From the NCBI RefSeq assembly GCF_003334765.1, contig NZ_QOWT01000023.1: 64,000 nucleotides of DNA. One strand, given 5' to 3'. Positions 3,944 through 4,065 of the stretch are shown here, piece after piece. The stretch is from Escherichia coli (GTDB lineage: Bacteria; Pseudomonadota; Gammaproteobacteria; Enterobacterales; Enterobacteriaceae). Made by a program: the position numbers and the translations under genes. Under the pieces are notes generated by a model, which saw nothing but the letters and a program-made list of their open reading frames with translations, was not told the DNA's origin and did not search any database. The first letter of the stretch is position 1. Each line of letters begins with the position of its first letter.

Positions 3944-4022
3944 AAAAAACCCATCAACCTTGAACCGAAATGGCGGGGTTGATGGGCTCCACAAAATGGG
4001 GACATCAAAGAAAAGCAGTGGC
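3944..4022 (-). ncRNA. rybB: RybB small RNA (sigma-E-dependent, Hfq-binding)
   Basis: Reverse complement of 3944-4022 reads GCCACTGCTTTTCTTTGATGTCCCCATTTTGTGGAGCCCATCAACCCCGCCATTTCGGTTCAAGGTTGATGGGTTTTTT, the 79-nt RybB sequence as I recall it, including terminator hairpin and U-run; K-12 position is just upstream of ybjL. Confidence 0.85.
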
Positions 4023-4029
4023 ACTAATT

Positions 4030-4065
4030 AAGACTGATGCCCTGCGGAAAAGTTCTGCGGTTGTG
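4030..4065 (-). promoter_or_regulatory. Putative sigma-E promoter of rybB
   Basis: Minus strand just upstream of the RybB 5' end reads GCAGAACTTTTCCGCAGGGCATCAGTCTTAATTAGT, with a -35-like AGAACTT and -10-like TCTTA. Confidence 0.45.

Follow-up and report, generated by a model that had tools for sequence, protein, structure and literature searches.

We propose that a P2-like phage has integrated into the 3' end of the small RNA gene rybB through a 14-bp core, AACAAAAAACCCAT, and that the insertion has restored rybB. We assign this reading a probability of about 0.93. It derives from comparing a single prophage-chromosome junction with the corresponding phage, empty-site and opposite-junction sequences in other records. 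The junction lies in a 64,000-nt stretch of Escherichia coli DNA (contig NZ_QOWT01000023.1), hereafter called the window. If this reading is correct, the right boundary of the prophage belongs at 3954 or 3941, inside rybB, and neither where ogr ends nor in the spacer.

rybB at the edge of a P2-like prophage

The junction comprises the following features (window coordinates).

2454-3554, plus strand: P2 gpD-like tail protein (phrog_52, 3.9e-175; gpD-like in the annotation of phage 4LV2017)
3645-3863, plus strand: ogr/delta/B-like zinc-finger late-gene activator of 72 aa, the last prophage gene, convergent with rybB
3864-3940, plus strand: P arm contributed by the phage to the attachment site; it holds a tandem pair of putative 186-type Int arm sites
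3928-3940, strand not assigned: stretch in which the core continues imperfectly (9 of 13 bases as in K-12 attB, 10 of 13 for KP12 attP)
3941-3954, strand not assigned: attR copy of the 14-bp common core, exact in attP, attB, attL and attR
3941-4022, minus strand: rybB sRNA gene (5' end at 4022 by the seed; Rfam model 4019-3941)
3948-3988, minus strand: Rho-independent terminator hairpin of RybB, 12 pairs, with the U-tract at 3944-3949 (RNA fold and Rfam structure line)
4029-4055, minus strand: predicted sigma-E-type promoter of rybB (-35 GAACTT 4055-4050, 16-nt spacer, -10 TCTTA 4033-4029)
4099-5784, minus strand: ybjL, aspartate:alanine antiporter family (NF003440, 1178 bits, full length), the chromosomal neighbour upstream of rybB

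The window begins within the tail genes, and int and attL of its own prophage lie off the window. Genes for the tape-measure protein, gpU, gpD and the Ogr-like protein (ORFs 497-1975, 1972-2457, 2454-3554 and 3645-3863) follow one another in P2 order up to the attachment site, and the late region is 95-98% identical in nucleotide sequence to Peduoviridae phages. The Ogr-like protein matches phrog_603 (1.5e-28) and NF007241 (98.5 bits, under the curated cut-off of 116), and RefSeq names its ORF 'ogr/Delta-like zinc finger family protein'. The ORF ends at 3863, which leaves 77 nt up to the 3' end of rybB in the Rfam model and 80 nt up to position 3944, in agreement with the distance of about 80 bp given in a first-pass annotation of this DNA.

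Searching the whole window with cmscan against Rfam placed RybB (RF00110) at 4019-3941 on the minus strand, scoring 105.3 bits (gathering score 40; E 1.3e-20). The alignment is full-length, covering model positions 1-79 of 79 with a posterior probability of 1.00. The bases GCC at 4020-4022 complete the 5' seed of RybB. Here, the minus strand from 4022 to 4007 reads GCCACUGCUUUUCUUU, which is the sequence of the published RybB-16 seed oligo (GCCACUGCUUUUCUUUU-type; PMC4911921). Completion of this seed places the start of RybB at 4022 and its end in the U-tract at about 3941-3944. The first-pass annotation had described both the gene and its sigma-E-type promoter as intact, and this is borne out: positions 3941-4075, which hold rybB and its promoter, are identical to K-12 MG1655, and no difference from native RybB was found. 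From 3941 rightwards, the window and K-12 MG1655 agree over 1960 bases with a single mismatch, at 5900.

The predicted promoter is sigma-E-type in sequence and identical to that of K-12. Its -10 element sits 6 nt ahead of the start at 4022, and a loose sigma-E pattern occurs just twice over both strands of the window (128 kb). In K-12, the rybB promoter is sigma-E-dependent.

At the other end of the gene, the minus-strand RNA from 4022 to 3930 folds at -25.2 kcal/mol, with 10 G-C/A-U core pairs between 3950 and 3986 and a U6GUU tail (UUUUUUGUU) 3' of the terminator stem. A terminator-consensus scan of 3500-4200, which permits loops of at most 8 nt, gave no match, the RybB hairpin included. The loop region of RybB is larger than this limit, which explains why the scan missed a hairpin that the fold and the Rfam structure reveal. 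In vivo, RybB ends within the U-tract at about 3944, and three of the 14 core bases may therefore fall past the mature RNA.

On its upstream side, rybB is flanked directly by ybjL in the window, as it is in K-12. The gene rcdA (ybjK), which lies beside rybB in K-12, is found beyond the prophage in the E. coli genome G4/9. Among the RefSeq records listed, which include the K-12 MG1655 assembly, no annotated rybB ncRNA feature is present between rcdA or ogr and ybjL. This means that a prophage boundary inside the RNA gene is hidden from automated annotation.

The attachment core and the site of strand exchange

We compared four kinds of attachment site: attR from the window, attB from the rcdA-rybB spacer of K-12, attP from Klebsiella phage KP12, and attL from G4/9 and vB_EcoM-813R9. 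The 841-bp ogr-side junction of G4/9 is 100% identical to the window. KP12 is a Klebsiella phage that is 95-98% identical in D, ogr and int; it is thus a relative of the phage integrated here and not that phage itself. Recorded as a sewage isolate, KP12 has ogr, the spacer with the core, and an oppositely oriented int in one contiguous stretch, which identifies its site as a true joined attP. In a megablast against phage records, KP12 matches the window from the left up to 3954 only.

The record vB_EcoM-813R9 was also considered as a possible E. coli attP and rejected, as it consists of a prophage cut out together with host genes on its flanks (rcdA, ybjJ); it was used as a second attL instead. 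The rybB prophage of G4/9 (NZ_CP060073.1, 2996347-3009765) is a 13.7-kb remnant in which both attachment junctions are intact. Among the genes it retains are int, CI, those for replication, one encoding a DUF262 protein and one hypothetical. A fragment of the portal gene is fused beside a shortened gpD, and the head and tail genes are deleted.

The sequence AACAAAAAACCCAT is exact in KP12 attP, in K-12 attB, in both attL sites (G4/9, vB_EcoM-813R9) and in attR of the window, G4/9 and 4LV2017, and it is the sole exact block that attR, attB, attP and attL have in common. The flank to the left of this core is ...ATAAATTTCAG(G/A)C in attR and attP and ...ATAAGTTTTAGAT in attB and attL; the flank to the right is CAACCTTGAACC... 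in attR and attB and TTATGTAAA... in attP and attL. In attR, base 3940 is phage-type and base 3955 bacterial-type; in attL, it is the opposite. This switch of parentage between 3940 and 3955 places strand exchange inside the core, and we infer that Int cuts within the 14 bp 3941-3954. When the K-12 empty site is used as a query, it splits in lysogens into pieces 1-278 and 265-501, and the 14-bp overlap of the two pieces is the core. The depositors of 4LV2017 annotated its attR as CAGGCAACAAAAAACCCAT, which includes the core, as does their attL.

By both the Rfam model and K-12, rybB ends in the 14 nt of the core (3941-3954). Their minus-strand sequence, AUGGGUUUUUUGUU, consists of the last five bases (AUGGG) of the 3' arm of the terminator, the U6 tract and GUU. 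The first-pass annotation had recognised a hairpin at 3951-3990 as the RybB terminator, as distinct from an attachment site for which it might be mistaken. The hairpin is indeed the terminator (3948-3988), but the two are not alternatives, as its foot and U-tail are the attachment core.

The window holds one exact copy of the core. A copy with one mismatch, AACGAAAAACCCAT, is found at 42139-42152 on the minus strand, within an integrase-sized ORF of 405 aa at 42023-43240. Shuffled sequences lead one to expect 0.03 such copies in the window; this one is probably due to chance.

Two other placements of the crossover have to be weighed against integration through the 14-bp core. According to the first, the prophage sits wholly in the rcdA(ybjK)-rybB spacer, rybB takes no part in integration, and its terminator is unrelated to the attachment site. 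We judge this highly improbable. It would fit the facts that rybB is intact, that most of the terminator hairpin (3955-3988) falls outside the common core, and that the prophage does lie between rcdA and rybB, which is the part of the intergenic placement in the first-pass annotation that stands. The part that does not stand concerns the core, as the sole exact block shared by attP and attB, 3941-3954, is inside rybB, and it is there that the flanks switch parentage. In addition, two published descriptions place the integration 'within' rybB.

The other placement puts the crossover in the imperfect extension at 3928-3940, downstream of rybB, and leaves the 14-bp identity as an Int-binding or homology flank only. 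Here, attP and attB are alike at 9-10 of 13 positions; the window differs from K-12 solely at 3932, 3936, 3939 and 3940, and similarity is gone leftwards from 3927. P2-type cores are about 27 bp long and tolerate mismatches, as at the secondary sites of P2, and this tolerance would allow exchange within such a stretch. The attR sites of the window, G4/9 and 4LV2017 are, however, phage-type at 3936, 3939 and 3940, and both attL sites are bacterial-type at these positions, which puts the exchange to the right of 3940. Tyrosine recombinases normally require identity in the overlap region, which also speaks against a crossover in the extension, and we consider it extremely improbable.

The P arm carries further signs of the type of phage. 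A pattern search found putative arm sites TGCCGCCAATT at 3867-3877 and TGTCGCCATCA at 3878-3888, and a matching putative pair, TGCCGCCACTT/TGTCGCCACTT, 96-117 nt past the core, toward int, in the attL of G4/9. The P arm of the window is collinear with the ogr-attP-int stretch of KP12. The reported arm-site consensus is tgccGCCActt for 186-type and tgTGGaCa for P2-type Int proteins (Nilsson et al. 2011, PMC3448106), and the predicted sites on both arms fit the 186-type and not the P2-type. The same source notes that 186-type integrases tend toward structured RNA genes as targets, a preference with which rybB agrees. In G4/9, a tyrosine integrase of 350 aa adjoins attL (phrog_1, 6.3e-75, with Xer-type C-terminal matches), and int likewise adjoins attP in KP12. 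The G4/9 prophage further encodes CI, CII and Fil-type regulators.

On this basis, integration through the 14-bp core would proceed as follows. The phage, a temperate P2-like member of the Peduoviridae whose tyrosine integrase is of the 186-type, would take the 3' end of chromosomal rybB as attB. Its attP would bear AACAAAAAACCCAT as the foot of the 3' arm and the T-tract of a hairpin downstream of int, and the chromosomal copy would form the foot and T-tract of the RybB terminator. Int would then exchange strands inside this block. One product, attR, would consist of the bacterial rybB body with a sequence-identical terminator end, followed by the phage P arm and ogr. The other, attL, would lie off the window and carry rcdA, a 14-nt fragment of the rybB tail, the phage half-hairpin and int. 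For this strain, we would expect attL to read ...TAGATAAGTTTTAGAT-AACAAAAAACCCAT-TTATGTAAA....

In attP and attL, the core pairs with a 5' arm borne by the phage: ACCCAUUUACAUAAAUGGGU is followed by UUUUUGUU, giving a 9-pair stem of about -9 kcal/mol. This hairpin lies about 60 nt downstream of the stop codon of int and is followed by a U-tract. It resembles an intrinsic terminator and may serve to terminate int transcripts. As the exchange would take place in the 3' foot and T-tract that the two hairpins share, both the RybB terminator (in attR) and the int-distal hairpin (in attL) would be regenerated. RybB would therefore be sequence-identical from the sigma-E promoter to the end of the U-tail, and normal expression can be anticipated. 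Formally, rybB in the window may be a hybrid, with a bacterial body and up to 14 phage-derived terminal nucleotides, yet its sequence is that of the native gene. If the overlap is at the AACAAAA end of the core, only the U-tail and no base of the stem would be phage-derived.

Frequency, transcription and other elements in the window

To see how common the junction is, we ran window positions 3560-4400 in a megablast against 5,426 complete E. coli genomes. The ogr-rybB-ybjL junction is present in 1,115 of them (20.5%), with the whole query matched. An empty site, in which rcdA and rybB are contiguous, is found in 4,227 (78%). Most genomes without the junction, among them K-12 and O157 Sakai, align only from query base 369 onwards (window position 3928).

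The rebuilt terminator and the unchanged promoter suggest that the level of RybB would be unaltered in the lysogen. The first-pass annotation raised possible transcriptional interference. Such an additional effect, by which convergent transcription of ogr or of the late genes reads antisense over rybB and lowers RybB in lysogens or upon induction, appears unlikely to us. The geometry would allow it: ogr and rybB converge at a distance of 77 nt, scanning and folding found no canonical intrinsic terminator on the plus strand between 3864 and 4000, and no U-tract follows the RybB hairpin when it is read on the plus strand. In lysogens of phage 186, on the other hand, CI represses gene B, the late activator, and a CI-type repressor is also encoded by the related G4/9 prophage. 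The arrangement occurs in about 20% of E. coli genomes, which makes a strong cost unlikely. The orientation of ogr is moreover a by-product of where attP lies, as in attP the gene converges on int just as it does on rybB here.

Beyond the core, the DNA downstream of the RybB U-tract differs, reading AUCUAAAAC in K-12 and GCCUGAAAU in lysogens. We regard it as very unlikely that this changed downstream DNA, together with a convergent, terminator-less ogr 77 nt away, alters the termination of RybB, or that antisense transcription silences it upon induction. If it were true, about 20% of E. coli strains, namely the carriers of the prophage, would have a different envelope-stress (sigma-E/OMP) response.

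Elsewhere in the window, a second junction can be discerned. ARAGORN found no tRNA genes in the window. K-12 has a tRNA-Ser gene (serW) between clpA and infA; in the window, 41841-41855 retains only TGGCGGTGAGGGGGA, which we take to be the reverse complement of a tRNA-Ser 3' end. The 405-aa ORF at 42023-43240 is a putative integrase by its size and position, and an autotransporter of 1363 aa (58826-62917, TIGR01414) and IS elements lie beyond it. The stretch 41840-64000 looks like the left part, with its junction at about 41841-41865, of a genomic island that exceeds 22 kb and is inserted in the 3' end of serW. An intact serW would be expected past the end of the window, by the same integration logic as for the rybB prophage.

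A nest of insertion sequences occupies 54500-58800, and an IS3-family fragment is present at 53502-54074. The nest holds a tnpA of the IS200/IS605 type (54891-55493), the 5' end of which is overlapped by a match to STnc490 (54903-55026), with STnc100 (54682-54896) just upstream (both Rfam). It also holds a fragment of a group II intron, domains D1-D4 (55732-55902), with no reverse-transcriptase ORF nearby, as well as IS1, and IS2 at 57103-57906. Of the 5426 complete E. coli genomes, only 7 contain the whole IS block; NCTC9082 matches it best (99.9%) but has it at a different chromosomal location. NCTC9082 was rejected as a source of a complete prophage and attL, as the extrapolated region holds torA...ompA and is not colinear.

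Just after the 763-aa ORF at 39214-41505 (putatively clpA, from synteny with K-12), a one-spacer remnant array at 41718-41797 consists of two type I-F CRISPR repeats (RF01317; GTTCACTGCCGTACAGGCAG...) 60 bp apart. No adjacent cas genes were seen. Such I-F repeat remnants are known in E. coli strains without I-F cas genes. Rfam matches to ES036 (CssrF) and to naRNA4 (CssrE), a family of nucleoid-associated noncoding RNAs, at 15695-15737 and 16717-16797 respectively, are ordinary for E. coli intergenic regions; both families are presumably REP-derived.

Prior descriptions and known attachment systems

Integration of phages in rybB has been described before. In their main text, Hochhauser, Millman & Sorek (2023, PMC10121019) list Felsduovirus-type P2-like prophages within rybB as E. 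coli hotspot #29, occupied in 109 of more than 1,300 genomes, with reference to Bobay et al. (2013). The main text of Bobay et al. (2013) does not name rybB and treats sRNA-adjacent hotspots generically. Our junction shares the host species, target gene and phage type with hotspot #29 as it is given there. The main text of PMC10121019 states 'within rybB' only; from sequence, we derived the 14-bp core, where it falls in the terminator, and the arm sites. Hudson et al. (2014, PMC4048246) describe a Klebsiella pneumoniae island, Kpn38RybB, as a prophage 'precisely within the gene for ... RybB', and the int/attP module is 96-98% identical at the nucleotide level in Klebsiella phages KP12, 4LV2017 and about a dozen Kp48xx records. 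Outside supplementary tables, we found no published description of the 14-bp core and its terminator position. As a phage target, rybB is already known in E. coli and Klebsiella, and the base-level core is a detail of this known phenomenon.

That a tyrosine integrase uses an attP core matching the 3' end of an RNA gene is textbook knowledge, the junction is ordinary, and no long-standing question is opened by it. The importance lies mainly in correct annotation, and in recording how often the site is occupied in E. coli (in about 20% of complete genomes). If the proposed reading holds, the junction would also clearly illustrate how the terminator of an sRNA can act as an attachment site in the manner of tRNA 3' ends.

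The prophage resembles P2 in its gene order (...T-U-D-ogr-att), with the Ogr activator beside the attachment site. P2 itself attaches at locI, locH and other sites. Unlike P2, the junction described here has predicted arm sites of the 186-type, not tgTGGaCa, and CI/CII-type regulators are encoded by the related G4/9 prophage. The 27-bp sequence taken as the core of P2 has no match in the window at up to three mismatches. With this core absent and arm sites of the 186-type, aligning the junction with attR sequences of P2 lysogens, as the first-pass annotation had proposed, is unhelpful.

The closest relatives are 4LV2017 and KP12, which are 95-98% identical to the window (or to int of G4/9) over D, ogr and int and differ in host genus. 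In the Klebsiella annotation, the repeat is 19 bp long (CAGGC plus the core), whereas exact identity with attB spans 14 bp in E. coli. The E. coli identity is shorter because the E. coli spacer reads TAGAT at the corresponding bases.

A second sRNA locus with a similar role is known from Salmonella. Balbontin et al. (2008, via PMC3603311) and Frohlich et al. (2012, PMC3333887) present the sdsR/ryeB-ryeA locus as a hotspot of phage attachment and insertion. Both loci are sRNA genes that recurrently serve as attachment sites for temperate phages. They differ in that sdsR/ryeB-ryeA involves another sRNA, other phages and a bidirectional sRNA pair.

The nearest mechanistic parallels are the 186-type P2-like phages at the 3' ends of tRNA and tmRNA genes, such as 186 in tRNA-Ile and Fels-2 and SopE-phi in ssrA (PMC3448106; Williams 2002). 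Like these, the rybB phage would combine a tyrosine integrase and tgccGCCActt arm sites with an attP core in which the 3'-terminal part of a structured RNA gene is repeated, and this repetition is what leaves the RNA gene intact after insertion. Unlike in these cases, the target is an Hfq-dependent sRNA and not a tRNA or tmRNA. The rybB core is also short, with 14 bp that cover only the foot and U-tail of the terminator, whereas the tRNA and tmRNA cores cover the T-arm or the acceptor stem.
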